A stretch of 62,080 nucleotides of DNA, the filler included, from Stramenopiles sp. TOSAG23-6 (lineage: Eukaryota), in assembly GCA_900128565.1 (NCBI GenBank). It is 16 parts of 16 records of this genome, joined end to end, with 100 filler letters (N's around TTAATTAATTAA, not from the genome) between each part and the next. Parts side by side here need not be neighbours in the genome. Positions count along the whole stretch, not along the records: positions 31,164 to 34,950 come from LT637379.1; 15 more parts are not named here. One strand, given 5' to 3'. Position 1 is the first letter of the stretch. The number at the start of each line of letters is the position of its first letter. Shown one piece after another: positions 1,405-60,718 of the stretch. Position numbers and translations under genes: made by a program. Under the pieces are notes generated by a model. It was not told where the DNA came from. It searched no databases and saw only the letters and a program-made list of their open reading frames with translations.

Positions 1405-2821
1405 ATGATGCAGTTATCATGCAATTTGACAACTCGATTAATATCCACAACTAGATTTCATTGGAGAATACAACCCTTTACAAAACAGACTCAATTGAAA
1501 ACGTGTAAATACTTTACAAGTATAGCCAATAGTACATCCAATAGTACATCCACTGCTAAAGCGGAAACAAATACAAATCCATTTGCCTCATTTCGGAAGT
1601 TAGGAGTGTCACCGGAACTTGCCGATGGTTTGGCCAATTTAGACATAGCAAGTGACTCCTTACCAACACACATCCAAAAAGAATGCTTTGAAGTGATATT
1701 GTCTGGTAAGAATGTTGTATTGGGTGCAGAAACAGGTTCTGGAAAAACACTGGGTTATCTCATGCCAGTCATACAACGTTTGAAAGATCAACAATTACAC
1801 GGTAACGGAAGAGCTGCGCCTAAGCGTCCACATGTGATTGTCCTAACTCCTAGTCGAGAACTTTCACAACAAGTTTTTCAAGTTGCAAAAACTCTCTCTC
1901 ATTCCGCTCGATATCGTTGTGGTCTTGCGATTGGTGGTCAAAAAATGAACAAAAACGTTAAAAAGTTAATGTCAGGTGTTGATGTCCTCGTATCCAATCC
2001 AGGTAGAGTTAAAAAATTATGGGATAATGACGCACTGTATTTTTCACATGTTGAATGTGTTATAATTGATGAAGCAGATACGTTGTTGACAGAGGGATTT
2101 CAAGACGAGTTGGATTCACTTTTTAATTCACTTCAATCGCGTGCGATGCGTGGTGGTTCAGCATGTCAATATATTCTCGTAGGTGCCTCATTTTCTTCAT
2201 CTGTTCAGAAAGTTTTAAAGAAAAATTTTGTAGATTTGATTCATATTTCTTCTCCAAGTCTACACTATTTACCAAAGGGTTTACAACAGAAATTTATTAG
2301 ACCAAATGCAAATGATAAATATCCTATGTTATTAGAAGTACTTGGTTTGAATTCAAATGAAACAAATGAAACAAATGAAACAAATAAAACAAATAAAACA
2401 AATAAAACAAATAAAACAAATAAAACAAAAAACAAAACAAATAACATGAAAGAGGTTCTTCAGCCTACTATAGTATTTTGTAATAGTATCGATAGTTGTA
2501 GAGCAACTGAATATGCTTTAAGTGAAGCTGGATTTCACACGTCAGGCTTACATGTATGTTTCATTTTTTTAACAAAAAAATCGAAATTTTTTTTTTCGTA
2601 CGAAATTTTGTACCTAACAAATTTTTTAGATTTTTTTTGAAATATTTTTCCAAAATACATGGGGGGATTCCTCCACGCCTTCGACAAGATAATTACAATA
2701 ATTTTATTTTAGGAATGTCCACAATTTTAGTTGCAACAGATGTCGCTTCTCGTGGATTGGACCTTCCTAGTGTTACAAGAGTTGTAAACTTTGATTTCCC
2801 ACGTACAAGTGCCGAGTATAT
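1405..2821 (+). CDS. DEAD-box RNA helicase, probably organelle-targeted; exons 1405-2553, 2661-2821; motif VI missing
   Basis: Q motif, AETGSGKT, PSREL, DEAD, ATDVASRGLD; GLH|GGIP restored by removing 2554-2660. Confidence 0.92.
2554..2660 (+). mobile_element. Type copy of the Introner-like GT..AT intron family (about 65-70 copies in the window)
   Basis: GTATGTTT..TTTTCGTACGAAATTTTGTACCTAAC..GAAATATTTTTCCAAAATACAT; TACATG at both junctions; no AG near the 3' end; removal restores the helicase frame. Confidence 0.9.
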
Positions 2822-2942
2822 GTATGTTTTATTTTTTTTTTTTTTTCGGTAAAAAAAAAATCGATTTTTTTTTTTTTGGTAAAAAAATTTTGCACCTAAC
2901 AAATTTTTTTAGATTTTTTTGAAATATTTTTCCAAAATATAT

Positions 2943-3988: not shown

Positions 3989-6771
3989 ATGTAAGGACTT
4001 CCACATCAGAAGATGCTGAATTTGTTCGAACTGATTTATTAAAAACTGAGATATCAAAACTACCAATTACACTAGGATTGAATAGGCTTGGTGCTGATAC
4101 TTGACTTGAAGAATATTTAGAGTCTTTGTCTATATAGTCTATAGAATGATCTACACTAGAAGATTCAAATGCCGAACTTAAATTTTCTACCAATGGTGGA
4201 TTTATATGAAGACAGTGCCACGTATGAATACTTCCATCTCCGGCCAAATCACGAGAAGAACCATGTATTGTGAAAAAATATTTCGAAAAAAAAACTAAAA
4301 TTTGTTAGGTACAAAATTTCGTACGAAAAAAAAATTGAAATTTTGAAATTGCGAAAACGTACACGAATCATTTGAGGTTTATAATGATTACTACTGTCTG
4401 TAACATCATCATCTTTATAATTATTTACGTTATTTTTCGTATTACTTTGAGTTAAGACTAATATCATATGATTAATAGAATTGATCCATGAACGCGCCTC
4501 ACCGACTGTTTTTGCTCGGAGAGTCAATTTCTTACCATCAATATTCAGCACAAATGTGCCTTTCTTTTTTTCTTCATCTTGGCATGATAAAACACTAGTT
4601 CCTCCACTACCATCTGCAAAATAAACATTTTTTATAGAACCGGATTTTTCTAATAAACGAAGATCAACTTGAGTTTTGGCATACGAAAATATTCCTCCAC
4701 AGTATACTGTAGATTTCGTTAAAGACGCATGAGCCCGAAAGCGAAGTTGACAAAAACGTCGTTCCCAAGTAAGCATCCCATATCGCCAAGATCGTTTCCA
4801 GAGAAAGCCTTTATTCAATATTTGTTCATGTGAAGACGTTTCAACATCTTTTTTCTCTGAGGGAGGACTATGAGACATGGAATTAGGGTTAGGGTTAGGG
4901 TTAGGCCGAAGATTTGTCCCGGATCCAAACCACTTGAAGCGTATACTTATTTTATGATCTAGATCACTTAGATTTTCTGATTTTTTATTTTTTTCTGAAT
5001 TTTTATTTACGTTTACATGCATTTCAATGATACATCGTTCGTAATCTCTACCATTAGCTGATAATTTAAACATCGGTCCTGATATTATTTGTGATTGAAG
5101 AATAGGTACTGAATGCGACATCATCGAATCTATACTATATTTTGTATTACTTTTAATGAGTTTGTTGTAATCATTATATGGTATAGTATGTGTAGTATTT
5201 GGTGATAATCTCGAAGGAATTAAAACACTAAAATATTCTGGCATTTCGTTTTTTTCTCCTTTCATTAGGGTTAGGGTTTTTTTTGTTGGTTGCATTGGCA
5301 TAGAAAAGCGTAACAAAGGAACTAGATCTCTTATTCTTTGTTTTTGTTTTCGTTTCAAAACCGTATGTATTTTGGAAAAATATTTGAAATATTTTTCGTT
5401 AGGTACAAAATTTCGTACGAAAAAAAAACTTCGAATTTGAAAAAAAATAAAACATACATTGGTATCATTATGGACTTCGTTTGCTTCTTTCGATGAAGTT
5501 GTTGAAGAATTATATGTAGGTTGTTTTGTGTGTAGATTATTAGGGTTAGGGTTTCTTTCACTCCATAAATATAAATCAAGAATTGCACCAGGTGGAATTT
5601 TCGAACATGGTAAAACACAATCAAAAGACTGAAAACGGTTACATCCACTTCCTCGAAGATGACTTTCATGAAATCCACAAAACAATTCACCACCATGTAT
5701 TGTGAACAAATATTTTTTTTTTTTTTTTGTAAAATTTGTTAGGTACGGAATTTCGTACGAAAACCAAAAAAAAATCGATTTTTTTGTTTAAAAAAAAAAA
5801 TAAAACATATATATCGAAGTTCAGGTCGAACCATTATTGGATTTTGGATCACTGAATCTGTACCAAATTTTGTACCTAACGAATTTTGTTTTTTTTGGAT
5901 TGAATCTTTTTCTAGAGAGTCATTGCCATCAATACAAGTCACTTTAAAGCAATACGTGTATGTATTATGAAAAAATATTTTTAAAAATTGTTTTGTTATT
6001 AGGTACAAAATTTCGTACGAAAAAAAATAAGCAAAAAATAAATGAAAACGTACATGCATACTCTGTATTATTAATGTCATTTCCTATATCAGATTTTGAT
6101 AATGTTCTATCTCGAGGCATCAACAAACTACTGTCAGAACTACTATCTAAAATATTTGTAGTGACGGATAAATGTGAATTTGTACCAAATTTCGTACTTA
6201 ACGAACTTCGAATTTGCTGAGTGCCAACACCCTTAGAATTACCAAAAAAGTTTCGTTGATGTTTTAACTCCCTCTGAGAAGGAGATGAAGTCATTGTAGT
6301 TTCTGTAGGTGAAGTTCTTGTAGCTTTTCTAGGTGAAGTCATTGTAGCTTTTCTAGGTGAAGTCATTGTAGCTTTTCTAGGTGAAGTTATTGTGGCTTTT
6401 CTAGGTGAAGTTATTGTAGTTTTTCTAGGTGAAGAATATGTTGAAGTAGATAATGGTTTTCGAGGAGAAGATATTTCCGTTTTATCCCAAGAGCTTAAAC
6501 CAGTTTGAGTATTATAGTAATAGACGTTTCCTTTGCCATCATCACAAGGTACCCAGGCCGATTTCAAGCTTGTGCCATTTGTTCCAACAATCCTTGATTT
6601 ACTGGGCTTGGTCCATTGTGACTCTTGTGTTATAGTATTGTACCAATAATCATTATTCTGTTCATCTGTATATTTCACCCATTCTGAGTCAGCATAAGTA
6701 CTCTCACGAGCTGTATTTCTTGGCGATTTTTGGAATCCGTTAGTACTATGCACAGACTCTATCTGATACAT
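3989..6771 (-). CDS. Signalling protein with 2 WW domains, a PI3K-type C2-like region and a PH domain, 3' truncated; introns 5960-6053, 5695-5810, 5365-5457, 4263-4362
   Basis: WVKYTDEQNNDYWYNTITQESQWTKP; WVPCDDGKGNVYYYNTQTGLSSWDK; ELRY|GGELFCG; KGFLWKR..WERRFCQL..EARSWINSI. Confidence 0.78.
6283..6434 (-). repeat. Coding 24-bp tandem repeat (SPRKATxT, about 6 units)
   Basis: AGGTGAAGTCATTGTAGCTTTTCT units on the + strand. Confidence 0.9.
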
Positions 6772-7078
6772 GTGTCAATATTCTAAACTTCTCAATTCAG
6801 GCACAGTAAATTTGACTATAGAAGCTTTGTAGCGACGTGTGTGTTGTGTGTAGTACGTACTAAATAGAAAAACAATTATTCAATAACAATAATAAAAGGC
6901 GAATCCGTATTGTGGTGGTGATTGACATTATTGGTATTGACAATATAGATATTTTCGGCCTTGTTTTGACAGCAGCAAAAACACGAAATCTAGCGAAGAC
7001 CGTTACACATACTATTGAGATTTCGGTTTCTTATCTACATCCGGTCAAACAATTTGTGAATTCATAAGGTAAATAAAT

Positions 7079-7597
7079 ATGGCTAAACTAGGTAAAGCGA
7101 AAAAAGGCAAGACGCAGGAACCTGAGGCCGAGACTGGTCCATCGGCAGCAGAGAGGCGCTTGCAGGAGAGAGTTGAAAAAATGAAAGCAAATGATCTGAG
7201 GCGTCGTTTAGCCATTCAACGTCGTGATGAGTTGAAACAAAACATGATTCGAGAACAAAAGAATTCACGTATGAACTTACTAAAGATTCAAAACCAATGG
7301 AGAAAAATCATGCGTTTGGCAAAGGTACAATCTCTCCGAAAGGATATTGATGTTCTCGCACAAAGTCATGAACGAGATGTTGATCGAAAAGATGCAATTA
7401 TTCAAATGCTTGACCGAGATCTCGAAGAGGCCGAGGAACAATACCAGATGGCTCTTCGTGTACACTTGCAAAACACAGATAAATTATTAGAGTTGCAAGA
7501 TAATCGCTTACTTGCCCTTGAAAATTCTTTTAGTACCGAATTATCTCAAATACAAGAAGATATGAACATTGAACGTAAATACATGGAGAAACAGCAT
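7079..7597 (+). CDS. CCDC65: Dynein regulatory complex subunit 2, N-terminal exon; followed by an element starting GCATGT
   Basis: KIQNQWRKIMRLAK..LRKDIDVLAQSHERDVDRKDAIIQML..DLEEAEEQYQMALRVHL. Confidence 0.9.
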
Positions 7598-8017
7598 GCA
7601 TGTTTTATTTTTATTTTTCAATTTTTTAGCTAAATATGTTTCATACGAAATTTTGTACCTAACAAATTTTTTTAGATTTTTTTTTGAAATATTTTTCCAA
7701 NNNNNNNNNNNNNNNNNNNNNNNNNNNNNNNNNNNNNNNNNNNNTTAATTAATTAANNNNNNNNNNNNNNNNNNNNNNNNNNNNNNNNNNNNNNNNNNNN
7801 AAAATAATGCAAGCAAAATTGGGAAAAATAAAAAAACAATGAAAAAATTAGNAAATAAATTTTATCATGGTATTATTCAAAAAAAACACGATTTTTTTTC
7901 CCCGAAAAAATCTAATTTCAGAATCCCAAAAATTTGAAAGTAATCGTCAAGTAGTACTAGTACTACGTAGTCAAAAAAAACAACCCAACACAGAGTCATC
8001 TTTCATTGAATCATTGA

Positions 8018-8760
8018 ATGAGATGGAGTAGTCATCGACAGTTGTGTACAATAATGACAGATCAAGTAGATAAACTTTACCCAGGAACAGCAGTGAAGCG
8101 TATGATGTCTGCTCGAGAGCGCGTTTGCTCATTTTCACCTGCTACACTTAGCAAAAGTTGGCAAGAAGTGAGACGAAGTCTATTATGGGCCGCTGGATTG
8201 AAAGATTTACCAACAGCGAGACCAGGTATGGGTTATACGGGGCATAGTTTTAATGATTGGAATCATGTAGATGCAACATGTATGCTTGGTAAAGTAACAC
8301 ATTTTGAGAATAATGGCGAAGTTCAAGGAATAGCTCTTGGTAATCGTCTTGGAAGAGGTATAGAAGTCGCTTCAATCAAAGAATTAGGCCCAGGAGGTTC
8401 ATGGAGTACCTGCATGCAAGGATGTTCTCATGAACCTCCAGCCGATGTGGCACACATACAATTTAAGTCTCGCATTGCGTTTAAGCTTGTTTGGTGTCCT
8501 CCGAACTACAAGCAATTTATACTCTGTGATGATGAAGGTACGTTTTTTTCTTTTTTTTTTTTCATTTTTCTTTTCATACGAAAATTTGTACCTAACAATT
8601 TTTTTAGAATTTTTTTGAAATATTGTCTTTTACTTTAGGACATTTTCTCAACTTTGGTGCACCTACTGGAACACTTCCTCATATAAGAGAACGTGAGAGG
8701 AACTTTAAACATGTTGAAGGTAGCAAGTATGCAAAAGAAGCGTTTGAAAGACATCCGTAA
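8018..8760 (+). CDS. Uncharacterised protein; exons 8018(or 8054)-8537, 8639-8760
   Basis: Clean ORF (PGMGYTGHSFNDWNHVDATCM, GPGGSWSTC); element copy 8538-8638 has canonical GT-AG ends. Confidence 0.7.
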
Positions 8761-9693
8761 TAAATTATATGAAAAAAATCTAAAAAAATTTGTTAGGTAC
8801 AAATTTTCGTATGAAAAAAAAACTAGGATGTGGATGATGGAGTTGACATTCTCCTACGGGCTACGTATAGGTAAATAGTAGTGTGGGATTTGAGATTTTT
8901 TTGGAAAAGCTTTGAAAAAGAAAGTGAAAATTAAGTTGAAAAGCATATTTTGTATTGTATGATAATGTATGATATTTCCGATATTTTTTGATCATTTGTT
9001 TATTCAATANAAAGCAATAAAAAAGAACTAAAACGAAATTCTTCAAATTTGTTCAAACTATTTAAAACACAGAAATATAGACAGGTACTAGTATCCAAAA
9101 CGTATATAGAAGAATGTACAAAAATACGGTAAGGGTTGTAGAGAGACACGACGTGACAAGTAAACCCTAACCTTAATACAATTGAACAATATTTATCTCT
9201 AATTTTAACACAAATAGTCCGGGTAAGTTAATCAGTCAATTTGAAGATGATGAAAGCAGTCTTCTCTGTCATATAGCATAAACTCTGAGTTCCAAAATAT
9301 TGCATTATTTATGTGTTGTTCAAGCTATTCTTCTGGTACCTGTACATTTCGATAAATTACCAATCTCTTGTCATTCACATCACACTTTTTTCGTTGGGTT
9401 TTATTTGTAAAGACAAAAACGTTGAAATGTTTGTTTAACATTTTCTTCTTTTCATTCGATATTTTGGGGTCTTTTTGGGGTCTTTTTGGGTTGTAGAGTA
9501 CACCACACAGATATCTATAATATCCGTAGTCATATATATTTTAAAGTATTATTTAATGATATTTGTTGTAAATAGTTCTTTTATTTTAATAAAAATGAAA
9601 ATTTTTCCAATTTTGGAATCGTTTCTATAACAAATAAAAGTCAGGTATCATCTATACGTTAAACACGACTTATTAATATTATTCATGGAATAC

Positions 9694-17631: not shown

Positions 17632-19286
17632 ATGGATGCAGTATTTATAGGCTCACCAGTGAAAGTCACTGTACCAGCAGGAAAAAAACTAGGTATTGCC
17701 ATACAGCCAGGATGTAGCGATAATACGGGTTGTATTGTACATGCGTTTCGCCCTATATCAAGAGATCACATGGGCCCAATTGAGAGTTCTAACCGAGTCG
17801 TTGTTGGAATGTGGCTCGTAGAAATTAATGGAAAAAGTACAATGACGGAAGACTTCGATTTGATTGTAAACTTGTTGACACAATCAATTAATATTGATCG
17901 CATTCTCTTATTTGATAAGCTTCAGTTACGTGAAAATTTGCATATTACAGACAAGATGACGAATATATTGAATACTAATAGTAATAGTAATAGTAATACT
18001 AATACTAATAGTTATACTAATGGTAATACTAATAGTAATGGTAATACTAATAGTAATACTAAAAGTAATGCTGCGATACATGTAAACATTGATGAAAGTC
18101 ACCAAGTGGCAAAAACTGCATTAATCAGTCATTCAACATACATTGTTTGGGCAACTGCATTTCTTGGTGTGGGTAATTTGGGTGTCCATTTTGAAGTCCA
18201 TGGTGGTTCTTCAAGTTTAGTTGTCATGTTTAATAAAGACAATGAACATCATCTTCATCATCATCATCATCAAGAGGAAGGACATAGTAACCCTAACCCT
18301 AACCCTATAAGTAGTAATCCAAACACTCTTCAAAATATGAAAATATTAAGACATTCAGGTGTACGTACAGGAATGTTTCTAGTTCGAATCGATGATCAAA
18401 ATGTCTCTGAATTATGTAAAACACTTAAAATACCTAAAAAAAATGAAAATTCTAAAAAAATTGAAAATTCTAAAAAAATTGAAAATTCTAAAAAAATTNA
18501 AAATTCTAAAAAAAATGAAAATTCTACCCAAACTAAATCCATTCCGTCATTACAGTGGGTATTACAATTACTAGAAAGTAAAAAAACATCAAACAAAAGA
18601 TTAACTTTTTGTAGTGCTCCAAATGATTTTATTGCTCATGTACGTTTTATATGAATTTCTAATTTATTTCCAAAAAAAGATTTCATACGAAATTTTGTAC
18701 CTAACCAATTTAAAAATTTTTTTTTTGAAATATTTTTCCAAAATACATATTCATTTACAATCGTTTGCATTATCTGAACGAAATGCAATTATCCTAATAC
18801 AAAAATTAGTTCGTGGTATCCTCACTAGAACACGAATTCAAGAGAAAATTTTAGCAGCCCGTCGACAACATCAACTACAAGTATTAAAAAAAAAATGGGC
18901 TACTTATAGTATAGATAAGATAGGACACAAACACGAAATACACGAAATACACGAAATATCTTCTGAATCCAAGGATGTTTCTAAGGATCATCAAAAGAGT
19001 TATACGAAGGATAATGCTATTTGTGGAAACCCTAACCCTAATACACAAAATAGTACAGTATTACATCTACAGAAACATTCCATATCGAATTTGAAAAATA
19101 TTTTTGAGTTCCCTAACCCTAACCCTAATTCAACATCAAATTTGAAAGACATTTTTGAGTGCAGTCATTGTCATTATAAACTGAATCCAAATACTGGATT
19201 ATTTTATAACCCTAACCCTAACCCTCAAATATTGTCCACAAAATTATCAAGAGCTAAACATATATATCAAATGAAACAAAGAAAAT
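17632..19286 (+). CDS. PDZ-like and IQ-motif protein, 3' truncated; intron 18640-18748
   Basis: GKKLGIAI..VGMWLVEING; GNLGVHF..GMFLVRIDD; IQKLVRGILTR. Confidence 0.65.
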
Positions 19287-23282: not shown

Positions 23283-23437
23283 NNNNNNNNNNNNNNNNNN
23301 NNNNNNNNNNNNNNNNNNNNNNNNNNTTAATTAATTAANNNNNNNNNNNNNNNNNNNNNNNNNNNNNNNNNNNNNNNNNNNNTTTGTACCTAACAATTTT
23401 TTTAAGATTTTTTTTGAAATATTTTTCCAAAATACAT

Positions 23438-23973
23438 TTATCATTGGTCAGGCAGAAAAAGCTCGCGCAATGGAAACCGAATTAGAGAAGATTTTACCAT
23501 TTGAAGATCTTTCAGAAGTATCACAATCTGAGCAAGCATTGTTGTCACAAGAAATAAACGGTATTAAGGAAGCAATACTACAGAATTCAGATCTTTTAAA
23601 GGATACAGATGGAGATGAGGTTTCTCCTTTTCATCCTGTAGCTATTGACTCTGAAGGAAACTTGGTAAATGAAACAAATTATTTAGACATCTTTTTCAAA
23701 AAGTTCAATAATGTTTTATTAGAAAAGTTGGCCGTACAACGTGAAAGGAACAGACTAGATAAGGAAAATAAAGATCTTCAATCTATTTTAAAACAATATT
23801 TAGATGGAATTTCGGTAAATGCGGATGTTATGGAAAGTAATAATCCATTATTGGTCATCAATGGAAGAGTGAGATTAAATCGCCCACCAGTGCGTCGTGG
23901 GGGGCATATTGTATCTATTGAAGGAAACCAAATGGTCAATACAGGACGGGTGAGTTCTGGTGTTGGTTTATAA
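23438..23973 (+). CDS. CCDC65: DRC2 C-terminal exon
   Basis: ETELEKILPF; FFKKFNNVLLEKLA..LQSILKQYLDGISV..NPLLVIN. Confidence 0.88.
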
Positions 23974-24291: not shown

Positions 24292-25778
24292 TTACTTGCC
24301 ACCTTTTATCCAGCGTTGTATCATTCCAAAATAATGATAAAATGGAGTCGAACTCTCTTTACTTTTTGGTTCGTAGGGTTGAGTGTCAGTCAGATAAGGC
24401 ACATATGCAGTTCTACGAATGCTCTCTTTGCCATGAGTTGCCCCTTTCACACGATGCCATAAGCGCCCATCATGGACGGTGACGTCACCCGGGAATGTTG
24501 ACACACAAATTTCCGTCTCTTCATTATCATCATTGCTTATGAAATAAATTTTTCTAAACATGAAACCAAGTAAACTCTGATGATGTTTGTGACAAAATAT
24601 TCTGGAAAAAAAAAACGTTAGGTACGAAATTTCGTACGAAAAAAATATTCTGGAAAAAAAACGTTAGGTACGAAATTTCGTACGAAAAAAAAATATTTGA
24701 AATTTATCATCATGATAATTTACATGAGTCTTTGGTAATAAACAGAGAACAGCATCACCATTAAACTTTGAGACCTTGTCCAAATGAATTCCAAAATTGA
24801 GCATAGGACTTGGACGTCGTAAGTACGCGATATCACGAAGTGCATCTGTGTGCCAGCCTAACATTTTACGAGACCATAAAGAAGATTTATTCGCCTCAGA
24901 GCTGTAATACGCGTTCATAACAACACATGTATTTTGGAAAAATATTTCAAAAAAAATCTAAAAAAATATGTTAGGTACGAAATTTCGTACGAAAAAAACT
25001 GAATTCGATTTTTTTTTTTACCGAAAAAAAAAAAAAAATAAAACATTCCATCTTTCTCAACGTCTCCGATTCGCACTCGAGATCTTGCTTTAGGTAATAC
25101 TTGTAATACGTCAACTTCGCTTATAGAATGATCCAATATTTCTTTCTTTATAGTACTATTTGTACGTGATTTTTCATCATCGTATAAACCAAATGCATCA
25201 ACGACTATATCTTTCACGACATCGAAACGATCATTTCTTATGACATTTCGAACTGAATCGGACAAGGTAGATGTGAAGGGTATGCGGGTCAGACACTTAC
25301 GACCATTTTCACACGTCCCTTGAAATATTGGAACACCCCTAATGGATGTAACATTACGAACCAGTAAATCTTTCTCTATGCGTTGTCTTTCCGACAACAA
25401 TGTTTGAACCTCACTGGCAAGTAGAGCTCTCTCAAAACGAATGAATCCGTAGTATCTAAAAAATGATAACTGTTTGGATGTCAAGGAAGCTTCTAAATGA
25501 AAGACAGTGTCAACCGGAGGTATCTTCCCGGGGTTTATTTCTAAACCATATGTTGCGGCAAATCTAGCTTTTAGATCATTTTCATCGTATGGTGCAGTAT
25601 AATGTTTCTCATAGACATGAATCACGTGGGGTGTGATTGAACAGCCTAGTATTATAATGGTAAGCAAAGCAAGAGCACAAAACATAATACATTTAAGTGA
25701 AAACCATATCGCATTGACAAACGGTAAGTGCGGCTGCATATCTGCATTTTTCACTTTCAAAATTTTATTTGAGCTCAT
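24292..25778 (-). CDS. PhyH-like 2OG-Fe(II) dioxygenase with N-terminal TM; introns 24927-25048, 24583-24723
   Basis: GFIRFERAL, GWHTDALRD, LPKTH|HQ, PGDVTVHDGRLWHR (HxD..H triad). Confidence 0.82.
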
Positions 25779-31163: not shown

Positions 31164-34100
31164 AATAATGAAAATAATGAAAATAATGAAAATAATGAAA
31201 ATAATGAAAATAATGAAAATAATGAAAAAGACACAATGTGGCTTGAGAATGAAAATTCAAATCAATCACAAAATTCACAGGCATCCATTGTTATTGAAGA
31301 TTTGCTTCATTGGATTTCTCAAAATCAAACTCCTGCAGAACAATCCCAGGAAAAAAAATATACACAGTTAAATGTAAAAAATAATACAATACATAAAAGT
31401 AGTAAGGAGGCTAGTGTCCATAGTACGTTAGTGAATGCTTTTTTTACCTACATTTTTTTTTATAGTCAATTTCGTACCTAACAAAACTTTTAAAAATTTA
31501 AGAAAAATATTTTTTTACCTAAATTTTTTTTGTAGTCAATTTCATACCTAACAAATTATATATATATATATATATATTTCACAATAGACCTCGCAGATGG
31601 TAGTGAAAGTGATGGTTCTTGTATAGATGAACTAAGTGATGATGACGTCAATATACATGTACGTTTTTTCCTCATCAATGTTTTTTTCAATTTCGAAGTT
31701 TTTTTTTATACGAAATTTTGTACCTAACAAAATTTTTTTTTTTTTTTGAAAAATCGTTTTGTTTTTTTTGAATCAAATTCGAGTTTTTTTTTCAAACATT
31801 TTCATCCTACACTGTGTAGTACTTAACAATTTTCAAATGTATTATATTGTTTCACAAAATATACAAATTTCACGCCACTTCATTCACAAACGTCTTTCAC
31901 AATGACACAAACATCTCAAAACGATAATATATTCAATACGAAAATTCTAGATCCTACTACCCCTAACCCTAGGATTAACCCTAACCCTACAACACCTACA
32001 CATAGGAAAAAAATATCCTTGGAATTATTGAACCCTAGCCCTGACAACAATTCAAATCAAATATATCCTACAATTCCTAAAACTCCGAAAGAATATCACC
32101 GTGAAAAAAAACGAAGAAGAAAACTAGAAGAAAGTTCTATAAGTTGGAGTATTTTAGAATCTCAATATGTCGAAGAATCATCTCAGATGAAACAAAATAT
32201 GGATATAGACCCTAACCCTAACCCTATAAATGATAACACTAATGCTCATGTAGAAGAATCATCTCAGATGAAACAAAATATGGATATAAACCCTAACCCT
32301 AATCAAAATATGGATATAGAGCGTGTTCATCCAACTATAAATGATACTACCATTGTCAATATAGAAGATATAGTTAATATAAAAACTTCAAAACAAAATA
32401 TGGATATAGAGCATGTTCATCCAACTATAAATCCTACTACGGATTATGTAAAACAAACAAATGTAAAAACACGAAATCAAAAAAATAGTCGAAAGAGACG
32501 TTTTATACAAAAAAAAAAAAAGTATAATCCAAGTGATGAAACAGAGCATTCTACCCCTAACCCTAACCCTAACCCAAATAAACGTGTTTGTGTTGACTCC
32601 TCGTCTGATTTTTGTATACCATCTATACATCAAAAACATGAAAATTCTAAAACCTCATTTCATTGTACTGATTCAATACACCTTAAAAAAAAACAAAAAA
32701 AACAAAAAAAACAAAATAATTTTACAATATAAAAAAATAGCACCGTCAATTCAGTCCTTATTATCATCTCGATTTTGTCCAAAAATGGATGAAACTGTAC
32801 AGAATGGAGCATTTTATAGTAAGTATAAAGATATTCCAATAGCGCCATATCGATTTGGAGGTTTCACACATCATCTCCCTTTTGATGTTGAACAAACATC
32901 ACAATTAAAGCCATTTCGACCTACTTTACTTTCCCCTAACCCTAAAAATGTTATAACTGAAAACATAAAAAACATAAAAAACATAAAAAACATAAAAAAC
33001 ATAAAAAACATAAAAAATTGCCCTAACCCTAAACATGGTGTAGCTGAAAACATAAAAAACATAAAAAATAGCCCTACTACCCCTACACATGAGGCTCTAA
33101 TCAATACGATACATTCTACAAATTTCACACGAAATATTCATGTCAAGAATAATACACAAAATAAACAAAACAAACAACATGAAAAAAATGTATGTTTTAC
33201 TTTTTTTTTCAATTTCGAATTTATTTTTTCATACGAAATTTTGTACCTAACGAATTTTTTTTGAAATATTTTTCCAAAATACAGATACATTATGATTTTG
33301 AATATGTAAATGTAAATAATTCAATACGAGATTATGTTATACTTGAACCTTCTATGCAACCTCCGTCAATTGAAATTGTGAATTGTTGGATGAATCAAAA
33401 CCCTAACCCTAACCCCATCAAACTACCACTGGAAAGGTCAATAATACAATCAAAGAAACAATTTTTAAAATGTACACATAAAACTGAACTAGATAGACAT
33501 GGTAGGCGTTTACCCGTACAAATATATCGGAATAAGAGCCGAGATTCGCAAATTTCAGAAGAATCGAGAACACCTGCATCACTGCAGACAACACAATCGA
33601 GTTCATCTAGTCGTGATCTTTCTAATGATCTTTCTAATGATCTTTCTAATGATCTTACTAATGATCTTTCTAAGACAACACAATCGAGTTCATCTAGTCG
33701 TGATCTTACTAATGATCTTTCTAATGATCTTTCTAATGATCTTACTAATGATCTTACTAATGATCTTTCTAATGATCTTTCTAATGATCTTTCTAATGAT
33801 CTTTCTAGTGATCTTTCTAATGATCTTTCTAATGATCTTTCTAATGATCTTTCTAATGATCATAATCATTATAATGATTGTAATGATTTTAAATCTTCAT
33901 TTCCGAATACATCCCAAGTGAATTCCCAAGATAAAAACACGAATTCTCAAGATATACAAAATTCATTACGCATGAAATTTGGTAGGAAATTAGATACGGA
34001 TTCAATGGACAATAAAAAAAATACTAGGGTTAGGGTTTCACGTCTTGATAAATATGTCGTAGTATTAAGTATAGAATTGTTATGTGCTACTCGCAATGAA

Positions 34101-34873
34101 TTATCCCCAAATTCTAATAATGATGAAATTATTGCTATTTGTTATTGTATACATACGTTTTATTTTTTTTACAAAAAAAACGAATTTTTTTTTTCGTACG
34201 AAATTTCGTACCTAACAAATTTAAGTTTTTTTTTTTGAAATATTTTTCCAAAATACACATACTTGCGGAGATAATTCTAAAAATGATACAATAGGTGTCA
34301 TTGCTGTAATAAAGAATATAAATCTTGAAAAAAATCACACGCCAAAACAATCATGTAGGTCTCCAAAATTGAATTTCTAATTTTTTTTTTTTTTTTGAAT
34401 TTTTTTTTCTTTGTAAATTTTGTACTTAACAAAAAAAAATCAAAATTTTGAAAAAATATTTTTTCATCATGTATATTTAGGTCTAGTTGATCCAACAATA
34501 GAATTGACGGTCGTTCCAACAGAAACATTACTATTAGAAGAGTTTATTAAATTAGTTCAAAAAGTAGATCCTGATATAATCGTAGGGTATGACTTAGTAA
34601 GAAGATCTTTAGGTTATATGTATGTTTTATTTTTTTTCAAATTCGATTTGTTTTTTTCGTACGAAATTTTGTACCTAACGATTTTTTTTCTGAAATATTT
34701 TTCCAAAATACATTTTATCAAGAGCATCAATTGTAGAAGATCAGTCCCCTAACCCTAATAAAGAGTCTACATCATATAACCCTAACCCAAACGAGAAAAA
34801 ACATTCCACAAAAATGATATCCTCGCTCTCACGAGTTCCTTTCGCTCCTGCCCACCAACGTGTGAATAATGAT
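31164..34873 (+). CDS. REV3: DNA polymerase zeta catalytic subunit, internal multi-exon fragment
   Basis: LSIELLCATRNELSPNSNNDEIIAICY; ETLLLEEFIKLVQKVDPDIIVGYDL..SLGYI|LSRA; LSRVP; upstream exon boundaries partly uncertain. Confidence 0.82.
33614..33860 (+). repeat. Coding 12-bp tandem repeat (DLSN)n in the REV3 linker
   Basis: GATCTTTCTAAT units. Confidence 0.93.
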
Positions 34874-35050
34874 GAATGTTTTATTTATTTTTTTAACAAA
34901 AAAATCGAATTTTTTTTTTCGTACGAAATTTTGTACCTAACAATTTTTTTNNNNNNNNNNNNNNNNNNNNNNNNNNNNNNNNNNNNNNNNNNNNTTAATT
35001 AATTAANNNNNNNNNNNNNNNNNNNNNNNNNNNNNNNNNNNNNNNNNNNN

Positions 35051-35347: not shown

Positions 35348-35438
35348 GTATGATTTATTTTTTTTCAAATTCGAATTTTTTTTCATACGAAATTTTGTAC
35401 CTAACAATTGTTTTTTGAAATATTTTCCCAAAATATAT

Positions 35439-40217: not shown

Positions 40218-42522
40218 ATGGACGGAGTGTACGAAGGTGGTGAGTATCATACAGAACAATTACGTTGTTGTCAACGTTTAGGCCATTGGACAGAAGTAGA
40301 GGATGGTCCTGATGAAGGAACACGAGTTTTTATTCCTGGAGATGATAATGTTATAGGCGCTTTACGAGATATTCAAAGGTATCTCCGACGTGATAATCCA
40401 GCCCAACGTAATTTCTATCGAACTCTAGGTAAATGGAAAGTTGTCCAGACCAAGTTACTTCCTCTTGTATTACATCGTCGTGATGATCCAACTTTACTAT
40501 TTCAAGCAACAAAACTTTTAGTTATGGTAACCATGCCATTAACACCGGAACAAGATCAAGATGTTGAAAACGCATTTATTGAATCTGAATTATTGGTCGA
40601 ATATGTTGAAGCGTGTATATATTATTTTCATCATTTTTTTTTTTTCATTTTTTTTTTTCATAGAAAATTTCGTACCTAACCAATTTTTTTTTTTCAATTT
40701 TTTTTCACTCTATATGGCTTAAACAAGATATGATTGCTGTATTTTCTACAATGCTTGAAGGGCCTCTGTCTAGAATAGCTTCTCTTCACAATAATCCAAA
40801 TGCAAAAGTACCAAAACATGATCAAATGGTACTTGAATTGGTATTAACTTTATTTCGTAATTTACTGAATGTAGTCAATGTACAACGACATGTACGTTTT
40901 TCAAATTATTTTTTTTTTTTTCAAATTTTTTTTTAATACAAAATTTTGTACCTAAACAAAAAAACACAATTTTTTTTTTCAAAATTTTTTTTCAAAATTT
41001 TTTTTTAACCCATTTTGAATATTTTTATTTTTTTCACACAATACAGGCAGCAACAGCTTTGTCACATCGGTTAAATATACGTGAAAAATTAATTCAAAGA
41101 TACCACAAAGAAGATGTCATTAATTGTATTCTTTTATTTGTTGGTAATATTGACATACCTGCTTTAAAAGATTTCAATATGCTTGCGTTAGAATTAATGC
41201 ATTTATTATTTCGTGGTTTCGATCCTAAATTTCTCATTGAAATTCATAAATTACAAAATCCACAAAAAAATAAAAATGGTAAACATTCGAAATATGCACA
41301 ATCTCCATCAAGCTGTGCATATACAGTCAATGATCCAAATGATCCATTACATAAAAGTATGGTAGATGATAGAATTTTACAGAAATCAAAACGAAGTGCA
41401 ATGTATGTTTTATTTGTTTTTGATTTCTCAATATTTTGGGATATTTAGGGATATTTAGGGTTAGGGTTAGGGTTCTATATATATATTTTTTCATAGACAA
41501 TTTCATACCTAACGTTTTTTTTTTATTTTGTAAAATTCGTGTTTTTTCACAATATAGGAGTAGTCGACATTCACGATTTGGTGGTACGATGCGTATGAAA
41601 AGTGTTGGTGGCCAAAGTAGACGACAATTGGTTCATAACGCATGGAGTGATACATCAAGTAGTATGGATAAGACAGCAGCAGCGACGCGTGGAGCTTCAA
41701 AACAACAAAGGTTGATTCAATCTGAATGTGGAATTTCAGCTGATTTATTAGGATTTGGAAAAACTCCAAAAAAAAATTTTGCAGCAGTTTTGTGTGAAAC
41801 ATCAGAATTATTTATTGATACTTGTTATGGTCCATGTACTTTTGTAAATGTTTAATTTTTTTTCATTTTTTTTTTTCATTTTTTTTTTTCATTTTTTTAC
41901 AAAAAAGTTAAAATTTTTTTTTTTTTTCAAAATATTGTACCTAACAAAAAAATTTCATTTACAATATTTCTTCTCAGTCTATTAATCGCATCTCTACGTA
42001 AGGCATTTGCTACAAGTGAAGGGTATCTACCCAGTGATGAGTTATATTTACAACATTTAATTTGGTATTGTTCACGCTATCAGAGATATCGCTCTTTACA
42101 CGAAATCAAAATGTGGCAAAAAAAAAAAAAAAAAATGAAATTGAAAAATTCAGAAAAAAATGTCGGTTTTAATATTGGCACTTTGGGATGTACAATGCAA
42201 AAATGGATATTTAAGTGGTTAACTCGAGCATCTGAGAGATTTGGTGGTATTGGTGCAGATGAGAATAGATTGCATGTAGGTTAAAAATGTATCCTTTAAA
42301 AAAAATTGAAATTTTTTTTTCCTACGAAAATCTATACCTAACAAAAAAAAAAAAATGAAAAATTTAAAAAATATTTTTGTACAAATACATGTGTCTCCCG
42401 GTTCACTTGTTATAAGTGGTTGTGCACTCTCTGAAGTCATTATATTATTACAAGAAATGGTATACTCTACATGTGATACTGTTCGTGAAGCAGGTATGCG
42501 CTTACAAAAAGATGTTTTTTAT
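40218..42522 (+). CDS. TIMELESS: TIMELESS/Tof1 family protein, 3' truncated; introns 40615-40715, 40892-41046, 41403-41557, 41836-41982, 42276-42390
   Basis: LRDIQRYLRRD, LLVMVTMP, LTLFRNLL, SRHSRFGG, CYGPLIAS, QKDVFY. Confidence 0.88.
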
Positions 42523-49596: not shown

Positions 49597-50444
49597 ATGG
49601 AAAAGCAATCAATTTCTCGACGTAAACAATCAAGACCAGTAAAGAAACACAAACTTTATGCTCCTTCTACTCGTTCATCATCAGCATCTGCAGTAGCTAT
49701 ATTAGCCCTACAAGGATTGCGGTCTGGTATGGAAGACGTGTATGACATTGTCGAAGATGACTCCGTCTCAAATTTATCAGAAGTTGGTGCAAAGTATTAT
49801 GCAGTGTATGATGGTCATGGAGGTAGACTTGCTGCTGAATTTTGTTCCAAACATCTTTTACAAACAATAGTAAGTCAACCTGAATTCGTCAAGGAAGCCA
49901 ACAATTCAACTAGTTTTTATACTAATTCTGCTAAACACTCAAAAAACACAAAAAACACAAAAAAGCGAAAAAGAAATTCGAAACAAGATGAAACCAATTA
50001 CAACCAAAATTACTTTTTCCGTGCAGTGACGAGAGGCTTCTTAGAAGTTGATCAAAAGTTTTGTGAACTAGCTACACAAGAACAACTCGTTGATGGTACA
50101 ACGGCAACGTCAGCTTTTGTATTTAATAGTCATATCGTTGTTGCAAACGTGGGTGATTCAAGAGCCATTTTAGTCAAAAATAATGGTCAAGTACGTTTTC
50201 AATTTTTTTTTCATTTTTTTTTTCGTACGAAATTTCGTACCTAACAATTTTTTTTTTTTTTTTTTGAAATATTTTTTCATACTACAAGTGAAATGCCTCT
50301 CTACTGATCACAAACCTGAAACTGAAGGAGAGACTGAACGTATCATCAAAATGGGAGGTACAGTGACGTATAAAAATGGTATTTCACGTGTTAGTTCAAT
50401 GCTTGCGATTACACGCGCTGTTGGTGATGCAGAATTGAAACCAT
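49597..50444 (+). CDS. Protein phosphatase 2C, 3' truncated; intron 50191-50287 (GT..AA)
   Basis: QGLRSGMED, AVYDGHGG, DGTTA, ANVGDSRA, LSTDHKP, LAITRAVGD. Confidence 0.94.
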
Positions 50445-53561: not shown

Positions 53562-54445
53562 AAAACTGGTACGGTACGGTAGTGCTGACTAATAAACCTT
53601 GGTTGAATAAAATATATAAGGTGTTGAAATTTAGGGTTTTTATCCTTCATTTGGTGCATTCAGAAATTTTGTAACTCATTTTTTATTATTAAATAAGGAA
53701 AACGTATGTAATAAATAATAAATGATTTGAGTAGTCAATTTTCATTGGAGGCCTTATTGTCGGAGTAACAACTGTATCAAAAACTTAAGCTGAAGAATTC
53801 CTGAAGATTCCTTTAGGTACGGAATTTGGTACAAAAAAAGCGATGAAGCGCCAAGCGATGACGAAATTGGGTCGATGTGTTATCATTAGATGTTTTTTTG
53901 CAGTTTGATAAAGTAGTTATTTTCATTGTTTTTTGTTTTTACAAATATTTGGTATAAAAATTTCGTATAAAAATTTGGTGTATTTCTAAATTATTCTGTT
54001 AATAATAATAATGCTTGCTTTTAATTAGTCTAAAGGGTCCAGTACCTTGATGATCAATTTAAATTTACTAATCTATCGGTAAATGGTTTATTTCATTTAA
54101 TTAATCTGAAAGGTTTTGTGTTGTTACCCGGTAGCTGGACGAACGCTTAAATTTTCCAAACGTTTTCATTCAAAAATCTATATGATACAATTTCAATTTC
54201 AAATTTATTTCAAAAGATAGATCGCTTTACCCTCAATACCTTGTTACCACTTTTTACATCGTTGATTAATACCTTTGCTGTTGGAGTTTCAGGATTGTGT
54301 TCATATGAAGCTGGCAATATTTGATGAGCAATTTGAATCGAAGCTNNNNNNNNNNNNNNNNNNNNNNNNNNNNNNNNNNNNNNNNNNNNTTAATTAATTA
54401 ANNNNNNNNNNNNNNNNNNNNNNNNNNNNNNNNNNNNNNNNNNNN

Positions 54446-57400
54446 TTATTGATGTGCTTATATACAATGAAAATTTGAATGTTCGCAGTCTTGTCGCAGA
54501 TACGCTGAAAGATGCTTGTTCTCGATCAACGCGTTGTTTTCATTTTGTATTTGAGAATTTAACGTCTGAACTCCAACATCTTGATATGCTATGCCCAACT
54601 TCAGCAGAGTTTTTTTCATTACTTCAGCATCTTGGTGGGAAATCATCTCTTGCTGATTCTGAGCCTTTAGCTGCGACTTTATGTGAACGTTTAATTTCAT
54701 TTCCTCGGGATGCCGATGTACCATCTTCTACATCTGTGGCTATTACAATTGCTCCACGATCACATTTGATGTCTCCTTCATTGCCAATGTTATCCTCGAG
54801 TTTGCCAGGACGTGTCAGTACCTCAACTTCAGACTCCGAAGGTAGCGACCACGTGAATGAGTTAAGTGAAGAAAATCGATGTGTTGTTCCATTTCTAGTT
54901 GGTGCTCTTCAGATACTTCGATCCTTATGCTTACGTCAGTCTGGTGTAGTTAGTGTCAGTTTTGCGAAGTTTCTATTTGAAGAATTTTTGTTTTCTGTTC
55001 CATCACCGACGAATAAATCATATTGGCCTGTGTGTCGCACCCCTCAAACAAGACGTGCTGCATTTCAACTTCTTGGTACACTTCAAAAAAGCTCTGTAGA
55101 AATATTGACAGTTACATCCTCACTTGCGCTTGAACTTGTCAACAATGTTGCAAAATCATTGAATGATACATGGGATTTCGTGCCTTGTACGGAGCTTCGA
55201 GGAAGTCATTTATTTTCAGGCCTTCATAACCAAGGATGTACATGTTACATAAATTCACTCGTTCAACTACTTTTTATGACGAAAGCGTTTAGTCGTGGTA
55301 TCATGAAATCATGTTCAAGTATCCCTCATCAGAATGTATCAACCTTATCAGAGTATGATGGATTATGCTCTGGTGCTGACTTGGTGGGTAGACGAGTATT
55401 GATTCTATGGGAAAGTGGACATAAATATTATGCTAGGGTAGAGCGCTATATTCCATATGCAAGTGGAAAACCGGGAGGAAATCATTATATACAATATGAT
55501 GATGGAAATATATCACTATACGATATGTCGATTGGACGAAGTGGATTTGAAACGTCTACATTTCATGTTTTACCTAAATGCATTGACGAAGAAGATGGTG
55601 GTGCATTGTTTATGCGTCAAGTTCAAAGGACATTTCATTTTCTATCAGATAGTGTTTTAACTGCATTTGATCCTGTAGATTTAGTTGAATCGTGTAAAAT
55701 TTTGAACCTCAACTATAATGTACATCAACAAAACGATGCCGCAGAGTTCTTGGATAAAGTCCTTGGTGCCATTGATGACCATTTGAAAAAAAAAGGTAAG
55801 CCAAAGAATAGTTCTATTCCAAGAAATCATGTGTATGATTGTTTTGCTGTAAGTCTAGTTAAACAAAAAATCCCACACGGTTGTCCCAAGGCTCATATAG
55901 TGGAAAGAGAGGAGATTTATTTGCGCTTAGAGATGGATATTCGAGATAAAAGTAGTCTTGAAGATGCTTTAATGGCGTATACAATGGGAGAGGAAATGAC
56001 TGGGGACAACAAAGTTTTATGTGATATGTATGTTTTATTTTTTTTCAATTTCGAATTTATTTTTCGTACGAAAGTTTGTACCTAACGATTTTGAAATATT
56101 TTTCTAAAATATATGTGTGGTGAGAAAAAAAATGTTACTCTTCGCTCTGCATTTGGGAAACTTCCGAATACCCTATTAGTTCATTTAAAGCGTTTTGATC
56201 TTGATTTTACAACATTTGAACCTGTTAAATTGAATAATCGCATCGACTTCCCAGTTCGACTTAATATGAAACCGTATACGAAGGAAGGAATTGCAGAACG
56301 CGAAGCTCCACAAAGTTCACCAACATCTCCTGTAGGTTCGGATACATCGAAGGGTGATTGTGAAAATGATTCATTGAATGATGTAAATGATCTCTTGGAT
56401 TATGAATATGAATTGAGTGGTGTATTGATTCATTCTGGTGTTGCTCAAGGTGGCCATTATTATTCATTTATCAAAGACAAGGAGAGAAGTGAAAGAACTG
56501 TTGTATCCCTTCCATGCGGATCTTCAAATGACACTGGTGATTCTAATGATAATATATATTGGGATGAAGGTATCTGGTTTCGTTTTGATGATGATCGTGT
56601 TAGTCCGTTTGATGCGAAAGATATCGACCTTGAGTGTTTTGGAGGTGTTTCAACACGTAAAATTCGCGAACTTGATGGTGGTAAATACGTGGATCGAGTA
56701 ATTCAATTGCCACGGACTTCTAATGCTCTTATTATATTTTATGATAAGATTCTTCCCACCCCTCCCACAGAAGAAGATACAGTAGAAGAGAATCGACATA
56801 GAAGTGATAGTGCTAAATCACCATGTAATAAAACTCAGAAATCTTTACTTGAGAAAAAAATGGCAAACACGAAATTGCATAATGAGTCATTGAAAAGTAG
56901 AACGTTGATACCAAATGGAAGTGTCATCTCAGATAAACCTGAACCTGTTGATTATTTTTTAAAAGAAGTTTGGGAGAACAATCAAATGTTAATACGAAAT
57001 GCTTATGTACTAAGCCCAGATTTTCATAGTTTACTCTTCTCCATGTTAAATGCTCCAAATGAATTAATATATGATAGTACAAAATCTATTGAGAAACCTG
57101 ATGTGAACAAGCCCCCACCATTACCATCTAACATAAATAATAACAACTTTTCTAAGTTGACTATTTCAACTGAAACACTAAAAAACGATAAGGGAAATAC
57201 CGGTAAAGAAATATGTAATGATACTGAGTTTCTCTTAGTAAAATTAGGCACCATGTTTTTTTTAGATACTATTCTCCATGCGGCAAATAAAGTTGACATG
57301 GGTAATAATCTTCCGTCTCTAATTAGGTTATACGAAAGAAATCCAGCGTGTTGTCGATGGTTACTAGAAAAATTGATCTCTTGCGAAAGTTCAGAAGATT

Positions 57401-59496: not shown

Positions 59497-60718
59497 ATGC
59501 AACATGAAATATTGCTGGCCCTTTTGGGTCACTCTGGCGAAGTGATTGTTGATCATGGAAACACCAAGGGTTTCAAAGTAGTTTCAAACTTACCTTTTCT
59601 CGCGACATCTGACCAAGAACTGATCAACCGCATTGTTAAGTGCGGGTGGCATTTCCGTGAACTAACACAGTTTATTAAATGTAACCGCGAGTATGAAAGA
59701 GGTATACCTGTTTCAGGACTATATTTGAGAGCATTTTGTGTGGGTTTAGAAAGTGTTTTGGATGACTATCGTAAGTTAATTGTTGCAGCAGAAGAAACTT
59801 TCCTGGAGGAATCTGAGCTCCCAATTGTAAAGTTATATCAACTTCTTCACGACTATAGTGTCATATTACCGGCACTTCACCGCATCATAAAACAACTAAA
59901 GAAAGATAAAATAAAGGGCCTCCAAATAGTAAATCTCTTGCACAAGGAATCTATGTGTGGATTTCCAATTTTTGAGACATGCATGGTTCGTTTGCTAGGA
60001 GGATGTCTTGGCGTCCTTTTTAACCAAATTCTTGCTTGGTGTGTGCACGGTATTCTTGTTGATAACTACGGAGAATTTTTTATTATGGAGCGACATGGTC
60101 CACCATCTCGGTCTAATGCTCCAGATGCACTTGTTGCTGAACATGAGTGGACAGCCAGTTTTAAAATTCGTTATACAATGGTGTACGTTTTCATCAATTT
60201 TTTCCCCTATATTTTGTTTCGTACGAAATTTTGTACCTAACGAATTTTTATCAAAAAAAATCCCAAATTACATGCCACACGATTTTCTGCCTACTTCAGT
60301 TGCCGAACACGTATTATTCATCGGCAAAGCTGTTCGCGTTTTAAAACGTTGTGGAAACACATCAACACCTCAAAACCGTCAAAATATGCCATCGAATGTA
60401 AATGAGACATCTACTTTATCCATTGAAGATGAAATGAAATTTACAAAAGTGCTACTAAAGCTTCGGTCTGATGCTGCTCTCTCCAATTCAAACTCTAAAA
60501 GTCTTTTTGACACTAGTATGAAGAGTAAGAATGATGCGCAACTCAATGTATTGCAAATTGAACATACTGTTGAAGCACTCCGAGTATCCATTGCAAAAAA
60601 ATTGCTTCACTTGGTTGTAAAAGACGCCGAATTGTTTCGAGTCCTCGCCTTAATTCGGCAATATTTTCTTTTGGGAGATGGTCATTTTTATCAAGAGTTC
60701 GTATCCAGTAGTCGAAGT
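59497..60718 (+). CDS. TUBGCP4: Gamma-tubulin complex component 4, partial; intron 60183-60273
   Basis: MQHEILLALLGHSG, GLYLRAFCVGL, DNYGEFFI, VAEHVLFIGKAV, YFLLGDGHFYQEF. Confidence 0.88.

Follow-up and report, generated by a model that had tools for sequence, protein, structure and literature searches.

A family of short introns, most of which end in AT, was found in a 62,080-nucleotide stretch of DNA from Stramenopiles sp. TOSAG23-6 (GenBank assembly GCA_900128565.1; the whole stretch, filler included, is referred to as the window). Nearly all of the introns in the window descend from one small (∼90 to 120 nt), noncoding, high-copy mobile intron, and when it is removed as GT...AT, the predicted genes regain their reading frame and conserved motifs. 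Introns ending in AG are a near-universal rule, and the few escapes from it, in Fritillaria, Amoebophrya, euglenids, and diplonemids, are informative on the flexibility of the spliceosome and on transposon-derived introns. The intron at the center of this analysis (the focal intron, 34153 to 34258) interrupts a gene with a family-B DNA polymerase exonuclease domain and repeats, at its own end, the AC that ends the preceding exon. In the best reading of such mirrored dinucleotides, the element inserted as DNA at AT with a 2-bp duplication that supplied the 3′ splice dinucleotide, an account for which the probabilities appear evenly balanced.

An nhmmer profile built on six clean copies gave 60 non-overlapping matches in 62 kb at a threshold of E < 0.01, and the match to the focal intron extended across model positions 2 to 102 (E = 2.8e-18). 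From 5′ to 3′, a typical copy consists of (AT^)GTAYGTTTTATTTTTTTT, an internal block, TTTTTCGTACGAAATTTYGTACCTAAC, a T-run, and GAAATATTTTTCCAAAATACAT^, where the caret marks an exon-intron junction. Its features are, in order, the 5′ signal GTAYGTTTT, a hairpin-forming palindrome, the adjoining branch-site-like TACCTAAC, T-rich tracts, and a fixed 3′ block that closes with ...AATAC. Within the window, GTACYTAAC occurred 51 times with alignable flanking sequence (38 on the plus strand and 13 on the minus strand), and GAAATATTTT, from the 3′ block, occurred 25 times on the plus strand and 6 times on the minus strand. Intron lengths in the curated set described below were 81 to 204 nt, mostly 90 to 125 nt. 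TACYTAAC was present in 38 of 44 introns and the exact 16-nt palindrome GTACGAAATTTCGTAC in 16 of 44; the branch-like CTAAC was located 27 to 49 nt from the 3′ end (112 nt in one case), with a median of 41 nt (n = 44).

Whole-length pairwise identity was 0.84 to 0.90 for the best copies and graded down to ∼0.58, compared to a mean of 0.51 and a maximum of 0.62 for shuffled pairs; the focal intron and the copy at 2554 share 87% identity. Two subfamilies are recognizable by internal blocks that exclude each other, AAATTCGAA and AAAAAATCGA, and these blocks, together with the identity over the whole length, indicate that the family is not a product of splicing signals alone. The genes that host the copies (among them DEAD-box, PP2C, UCH, PolB, GCP [gamma-tubulin complex protein], and TIMELESS) are unrelated. 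Copies adjoin 11 of the 18 N-gaps by the nhmmer criterion, and four more gaps do so by eye. In contigs from four seawater runs (two DNA and two RNA), depth was ∼4,000 to 63,000 over intron bins and mostly 0 to 90 over exon bins (near 290 in one), a 100- to 1,000-fold difference that sums contigs from all organisms and therefore marks a very abundant marine repeat, not a copy number. That the introns form an introner-like mobile family of common descent, as the initial annotation had proposed, is well supported, and we have little doubt of it.

Selection could in principle produce a similar picture if the introns were old, had never moved, and were held alike by long splicing signals peculiar to the lineage, separated by T-rich filler. 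Signals (GTAYGTTT, TACCTAAC, and the 3′ block) are indeed the best-conserved parts, and the most diverged copies drop to the identity of shuffled pairs. However, the high identity of the top copies includes blocks that are not signals, the subfamilies differ in their internal blocks, the assembly breaks at copies, and the metagenome depth over introns greatly exceeds that over exons. Furthermore, the hairpin/branch core is duplicated in tandem inside introns 24583 to 24723 (minus strand) and 31423 to 31587 (plus strand), each of which has two TACCTAAC motifs. Immobility of the introns therefore seems very improbable.

A 19-nt core pattern matched four loci in metagenome contigs, only one of which (L003) is a family copy; it is related to those in the window, and removal of GT...AT from it keeps the frame. 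In L003, at 560 to 570 (minus-strand reading), the exon after the family intron ends CAAG^GTAAGT, which looks like a 5′ splice site of a different, canonical type. The core pattern had no match in the viral contigs scanned and one chance match only, in a Bacteroidales metagenome-assembled genome, in the prokaryote genomes scanned. An Rfam scan of the window matched no family and no small nuclear RNA (snRNA). Core-like sequences (TGTACCAAATTYYGTACYTAA) that resemble the hairpin and branch motif, with GTACC replacing GTACG, were observed at 5860 to 5890 and 6180 to 6210 on the plus strand and at 53808 to 53840 on the minus strand; the first two are antisense in exons of a minus-strand gene, in different reading frames. 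A palindrome of the whole element, as in the hairpin of a miniature inverted-repeat transposable element (MITE), was rejected, as both halves are T-rich by eye.

In the curation of 45 complete introns, the 5′ end was set at the GTAYGT consensus and the 3′ end by alignment of the 3′ block, ignoring the last two bases, and a frame check followed. Frame chose among nearby alternatives in five introns (31423, 34355, 16333, 40615, and 530). The intron at 35348 was dropped as a probable assembly chimera joined through the repeat, giving n = 44; introns at 20005 and 52008 and all gap-cut copies were also left out of the counts. The first two bases (n = 45) were GT in 41 introns, AT in 3, and GA in 1, and the last two were AT in 34, AG in 7, and GT, AC, AA, and TT in one each. 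Ends placed by consensus kept long open reading frames (ORFs) on both sides except at 2822 and 24163, within the 44, and at the chimeric 35348. No AG from branch+5 to exon+30 was able to keep the ORF in 28 of 37 non-AG introns, and in the remaining 9 a frame-keeping AG was present 6 to 21 nt inside the exon. Many copies also have an AG ∼31 nt before the end, and cutting there breaks the frame. Frames and homology thus point to AT as the predicted 3′ splice site.

Comparisons with homologues and profiles support these junctions. Spliced across 2554 to 2660, the DEAD-box helicase reads SGLH^GGIPPRLR, and GLHGGIPP is found in the homologues P0123 (LGLHGGIPPRLR) and P0125. With the end of the intron at 2822 shifted, helicase motif VI reads EY-IY-RYGR, compared to (D/E)(Y/F)LHRxGR in homologues. 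The PP2C Pfam profile is seamless over the intron at 50191, with profile position 131 at residue 241 of 242 upstream and 135 at residue 3 downstream, and the GCP_N_terminal profile passes from 223 to 227 around the intron at 60183. Removal of the focal intron keeps the frame between 323 open codons upstream and 39 downstream. The public coding sequence P0121 is identical to the window helicase (1396 to 3330, plus strand) over the aligned stretches. It forces an internal AG in intron 2554 to 2660, with FFLKYFSKIH in place of GLH and FFLKYFSKIHGGIPP read from the intron 3′ block; it reads through the next intron, ending inside intron 2822; and it lacks 7 and 36 residues of the ORF read-through (a low-complexity NETNKT run). 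Comparison of P0121 with the frame and motifs therefore indicates gene-model errors that arise from non-AG introns. Over positions 31164 to 34950, the two RNA and two DNA seawater runs showed neither a joint between exons nor DNA lacking the introns, with exon cover too thin to tell either way.

The register of the cut was considered separately. In the focal intron, which follows an exon ending ...GTATAC at 34152, the hexamer ACATAC is present at both junctions, and seven cut registers would therefore give identical mRNA. The sequence of the AT..AC termini noted for this intron in the initial annotation is correct, but these termini represent one of the seven equivalent registers. For the family in general, the cut might be 2 nt upstream at both ends, which would make the introns AT...AC (ATGTAYGT...AATAC) and start the next exon with AT. 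The 27 AT/AT copies would give the same mRNA with GT...AT, TG...CA, or AT...AC cuts; of the five AT/AG copies, four (33190, 40892, 16333, and 301) would become AT...AC and one (41403) AT...AT; the four GT^GT copies would become GT...AC; and the G-to-A changes at 5810 and 16518 would fall at +3 instead of +1. However, the shifted register is less conserved (A in 38, T in 38, and C in 30, compared to G in 42, T in 44, and A at −2 in 43 in the GT register; n = 45), the introns at 8538 and 31423 are only sensible as GT...AG, and GTAYGT is a classic U2-type 5′ signal. Conservation favours the GT...AT register, and the upstream cut seems improbable. The choice changes the predicted residue (GT versus shifted register) at 60183 (Val or Met), 4362 (Arg or His), 9875 (Val or Met), 33190 (Asn or Lys), and 40892 (His or Gln); a homologue search with the gamma-tubulin-complex exon, aimed at Val versus Met at the GT^GT...AT junction, returned no match.

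There is a resemblance to AT-AC introns of the U12 and U2 types in that most copies read AT...AC in one equivalent register, and the focal copy does so in the consensus register. The focal copy combines a first base A with a last base C, a pair known from AT-AC introns as compensating; T is the last base of two other A-first copies, and no rule was drawn on this pairing. A U12-type intron was rejected: the 5′ signal RTATCCTT is absent, and ATCC was found at +3 to +6 in 0 of 44 introns in either register. The U12 branch site (TCCTTAAC) is close to the 3′ end, whereas the branch-like CTAAC is at the distances given above (median, 41 nt). The lack of a U12 signature also speaks against the upstream register.

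The initial annotation held that the last two exon bases usually equal the last two intron bases. Identical pairs were found in 30 of 44 introns, compared to 25.8 in 50,000 shuffles of the 5′/3′ pairs (P = 0.009), and, as it had also reported, most mirrored copies are AT/AT (27 of the 30). The other exon-end/intron-end pairs were AT/AG (five), GT/AT (four), and AG/AG, AC/AC, AA/AA, AT/GT, AT/TT, TA/AG, GG/AT, and TG/AT (one each). The excess over chance is real but small, as two family-wide constants (exon ...AT^ and intron ...AT^) account for ∼26 of the 30 matches. Position −1 matched in 36 of 44 introns, compared to 30.8 in shuffles (P = 0.002). Identical pairs other than AT/AT numbered three, with 0.29 expected (P = 0.0008). 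They are the ones previously described, AC/AC in the focal intron with ACATAC duplicated, AA/AA at 50191 with CAA^GT, and AG/AG at 8538; AA/AA and AC/AC are each a unique dinucleotide found at both ends of one intron, which counts toward duplication, as does the seamless PP2C junction. The longer repeats were likewise confirmed (TACAT^G at 2554, TACAT^GT at 16099 to 15973 on the minus strand, CAT^GTAC at 36054, and ATAT^GT at 56028), and against shuffled controls there were six junction repeats of at least 6 nt, with 2.8 expected (P = 0.03; n = 45).

A biased insertion site, parallel to the CAG^G protosplice site, had been suggested and is apparent in the logo (C)AT^G: of the 44 introns, 34 have AT at exon positions −2/−1, 20 have C at exon −3, and 23 are followed by an exon whose first base is G (binomial P values of 1e-5 and 1e-7 for the C and the G). 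Copies ending in AG were more diverged than those ending in AT (median of the mean top-5 identity, 0.64 versus 0.76; Mann-Whitney P = 0.029), consistent with the earlier suggestion that AG copies drifted later; a change of the terminal T to G over time would explain the difference, as would canonical introns of greater age.

Insertion at AT with a 2-bp duplication would be the simplest source of the mirrored dinucleotide. The element would insert at (C)AT^G in the sense strand of genes and be flanked by AT on both sides, and at the rare non-AT sites (AA, AC, and AG) the duplicated copy may have become the 3′ splice site. The spliceosome would remove GT...AT, which is the element plus one AT, and thereby recover the coding sequence as it was before insertion. 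AT would then be the usual 3′ splice dinucleotide of the lineage, with A at −2 nearly fixed and −1 tolerant, and older copies would tend to gain a terminal G and become canonical AG introns. A 2-bp target-site duplication (TSD) is plausible but unproven. The initial annotation had equated the mirror with a TSD; the three non-AT matches agree with this, but the seven unmirrored non-AT ends do not, and most of the identity is the shared AT. As PMC9860276 points out, a match common to all copies cannot distinguish a TSD from a site preference without duplication.

A TSD longer than 2 bp (CATG or TACAT) was rejected, as −3 or +1 is not consistently common among young copies. An end-to-end RNA helix as the cause of the mirror was also rejected: minimum-free-energy folds pair AUGUAU with AUACAU and form a central hairpin, but the energies are unexceptional (fold z-scores of −0.4 to −1.9), and pairing and covariation were not above those of shuffles. 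Tc1/mariner-Stowaway MITEs have a TA target duplication. An origin from such an element was rejected, since the flanks are AT rather than TA and, in a TA register, host bases would remain that the spliced frame lacks.

It is also conceivable that the family spread through RNA, with the excised intron reverse-splicing into (C)AU^G of other transcripts and being copied back into the genome. No duplication would be involved; the exon AT would be a protosplice preference of the spliceosome in this lineage and the terminal AT part of the element. The sense orientation of all ∼60 copies, all in genes, and the coincidence of the element ends with splice sites are what such a route would give, but in a gene-dense window there is little power to detect intergenic copies. 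The two constants explain most of the mirror (25.8 of the 30 matches are expected from shuffles), and an element GT...ACAT placed after any exon end accounts for the six introns in which a different exon end precedes AT. It does not predict the AA/AA, AC/AC, and AG/AG pairs, whose excess was noted above, and the seven introns in which AT precedes a different end (AG in five, GT, and TT) would need later mutation of the element end. The element has no coding capacity and the scanned ORFs of the window contain no transposase, as might be expected of RNA-mediated spread; PMC9860276 notes families without TSDs or terminal inverted repeats (TIRs) and a reverse-splicing proposal for fungal introners, but argues that most nonfungal introners move as DNA. 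On balance, we consider reverse splicing unlikely, although a serious competitor of insertion as DNA.

Several points weigh against DNA insertion with a 2-bp duplication. Position −3 matched in 20 of 44 introns, compared to 16.6 expected (P = 0.12), which is no significant locus-specific match, and 7 of the 10 non-AT exon ends are unmirrored (GT/AT in four, GG/AT, TG/AT, and TA/AG), including those of the young copies 4362 and 25048, so that the locus-specific TSD signal comes from three introns. The consensus has the inverted repeat ATGTAT..ATACAT noted in the initial annotation, but among the 44 introns only 8 carry it without a mismatch over 6 nt and 14 over 5 nt. The inverted termini reach 6 nt only when the flanking AT is counted, at the lower edge of the TIR criterion of Gozashti 2022 (at least 6 nt; PMC9860276). 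The mobility enzyme that the initial annotation had envisaged did not appear, as there was no Pfam match to a transposase, reverse transcriptase, or integrase in 59 scanned of the 87 window ORFs of at least 100 amino acids, and in the gene-dense window no copy of full length was observed in antisense orientation or clearly between genes. Consensus-placed 3′ ends need a 4-nt shift at 2822 and, probably, at 24163; the curation was partly manual; splicing and its register are deduced from frames and homology; and the assembly is fragmented, with at least one chimeric join, such that some 5′ and 3′ intron ends may be mispaired. Just past the stop of a plus-strand gene, at 8773 to 8829 (minus strand), there is a truncated copy with the core and T-runs and no clear 5′ signal, which could be intergenic or an intron of an unrecognised small gene.

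Table 1. Positions of the focal intron, its parts, and other introns discussed in the text (^, exon-intron junction)
Feature	Position	Strand	Remarks
Focal intron	34153..34258	+	Starts ATACGT and ends ATACAC (consensus register); family-B DNA polymerase exonuclease-domain gene
5′ copy of hexamer ACATAC (exon AC + intron ATAC)	34151..34156	+	Junction repeat length, 6
3′ copy of hexamer ACATAC (intron AC + exon ATAC)	34257..34262	+	Junction repeat length, 6
Perfect 16-nt palindrome GTACGAAATTTCGTAC	34196..34211	+	Hairpin directly before branch-like motif; seen in all six folds
Branch-site-like CTAAC within TACCTAAC	34212..34216	+	
Conserved 3′ block GAAATATTTTTCCAAAATAC + terminal dinucleotide	34237..34258	+	3′ logo
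Helicase intron AT^GTATGT...ACAT^	2554..2660	+	DEAD-box gene; 386 and 63 open codons; best validated junction
Helicase intron, consensus 3′ end fails frame	2822..2942	+	Motif VI spacing needs 2822-2938 or 2826-2942
PP2C intron AA^GTACGT...ACAA^	50191..50287	+	AA/AA mirror, CAA^GT repeat; 242 and 61 open codons
AG^GTACGT...TTAG^ intron	8538..8638	+	AG/AG mirror; canonical GT-AG; diverged family copy, mean top-5 identity 0.75
GT^GTACGT...ACAT^ intron, unmirrored	60183..60273	+	Gamma-tubulin complex gene; 275 and 148 open codons; one of four GT/AT
GT^GTACGT...ACAT^ intron, young, unmirrored	4263..4362	-	Mean top-5 identity 0.81
AT^GTATGT...ATAT^ intron	56028..56114	+	UCH gene; 526 and 699 open codons; junction rebuilds C-D-M-C (CxxC)
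Young copy ending ACAG, exon end AT	33190..33284	+	In-frame ACAT 6 nt beyond
Family copy linking short-chain dehydrogenase exon to amino-acid-transporter-like exon	35348..35436	+	Excluded from counts

Introners that take one splice site from a TSD have precedent in PMC9860276 and the review PMC11282704. The introners of Micromonas and Aureococcus, and the families of PMC9860276 and PMC12130899, are near-identical, noncoding short introns at unrelated gene positions, like those studied here; the element brings one splice site, the target duplication may supply the other, and a marine protist host and an assembly-breaking copy number are further likenesses. In contrast, the 3′ end here is AT instead of AG, the candidate duplication is 2 bp and nearly invariant, compared to 3 to 9 bp in TSD families, and the inverted termini are 4 to 6 nt. 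The 2025 survey (PMC12130899) discarded families with unfamiliar splice sites unless they were supported by RNA, and among the searched supplements of PMC9860276 and PMC12130899 there was no MAST or Opalozoa entry. In Fritillaria borealis (Henriet 2019, as cited in PMC11282704 and PMC13326754), most introns escape GT-AG and reportedly derive from MITE-like insertions. AC or AT intron ends are common there, as in the present family, but those introns start with AG (AG-AC and AG-AT) and have diverse ends, whereas here GTAYGT and a yeast-like branch motif are conserved and only the 3′ dinucleotide is unusual. The introner elements of Amoebophrya (PMC7789003) are, like the present family, repeated noncanonical introns with direct repeats at the borders, inverted repeats that may juxtapose the ends, and no internal transposase. 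Their inverted repeats are 8 to 20 nt and their direct repeats 3 to 5 nt, with highly variable splice motifs, compared to 4 to 6 nt, 2 nt, and a single uniform family here. A nonconventional intron of the Amoebophrya or euglenid type was rejected on the basis of GT in 41 of 45 introns, a helix of at most 6 bp, the fold z-scores given above, and no pairing covariation. None of the closest known cases has a non-AG end together with conserved GTAYGT and branch signals, and the literature search returned no account of a GT-AT-dominant intron class, of the present family, or of MAST-3 introns. In the main text of the study of single-cell genomes of these lineages (PMC5778133), as excerpted, introns are mentioned only in the methods, and MAST-3 gene counts are low; the supplements of that study lie outside this statement.

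The window is AT-rich (∼32% GC), gene-dense eukaryotic DNA, made up of contigs joined across N-gaps, and its genes are ordinary (among them PEP carboxylase, DEAD-box helicase, PP2C, UCH, PolB exonuclease domain, TIMELESS, gamma-tubulin complex protein, and papain). The PEP carboxylase shares 89% identity with a public coding sequence labelled 'GSMAST32...' and ∼47% with the Tribonema and brown algal versions, and the host is therefore, by its sequence, a MAST-3-like heterotrophic stramenopile. The domains of an NYD-SP28-type protein, N-terminal and C-terminal (PF14772 and PF14775), are at 7073 to 7630 and 23383 to 23970, separated by 16 kb that include other genes; contigs may therefore be ordered arbitrarily in the scaffold. 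Gaps in the window carry TTAATTAATTAA linkers. Telomere-like hexamer runs, (TTAGGG)2-4 or the complement, are present throughout (36 matches to an 11-mer across the window), for example, at 4884 to 4910, 18291 to 18315, 32555 to 32580, 34025 to 34040, and 41456 to 41480; many are in frame within long ORFs and are translated as RVRV, PNPN, or LTLT. The string TAGGGTTAGGGCTCGGGCTC is present both at 25921 in the window and in L003.

Taken together, we tentatively propose, and think it nearly as likely to be right as wrong, that in an abundant lineage of marine flagellates the major spliceosome removes most introns as GU...AU, that this state was brought about and is kept up by an introner whose insertion at AT carries the final two bases of the exon over to the 3′ splice position, and that only the A at −2 is required, with the last base free (U > G > A, C). 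As only the last intron base is altered and the 5′ and branch signals are textbook, the requirement at the 3′ splice site would be directly testable, with the AT, AG, AA, and AC copies as a natural series. If the proposal is true, public gene sets of these organisms would be systematically wrong, and annotation artefacts could lie behind the reported 'pseudogenisation' or low gene counts. The forced AG and the intron read-through in P0121 suggest that gene catalogues of this plankton group are probably distorted.

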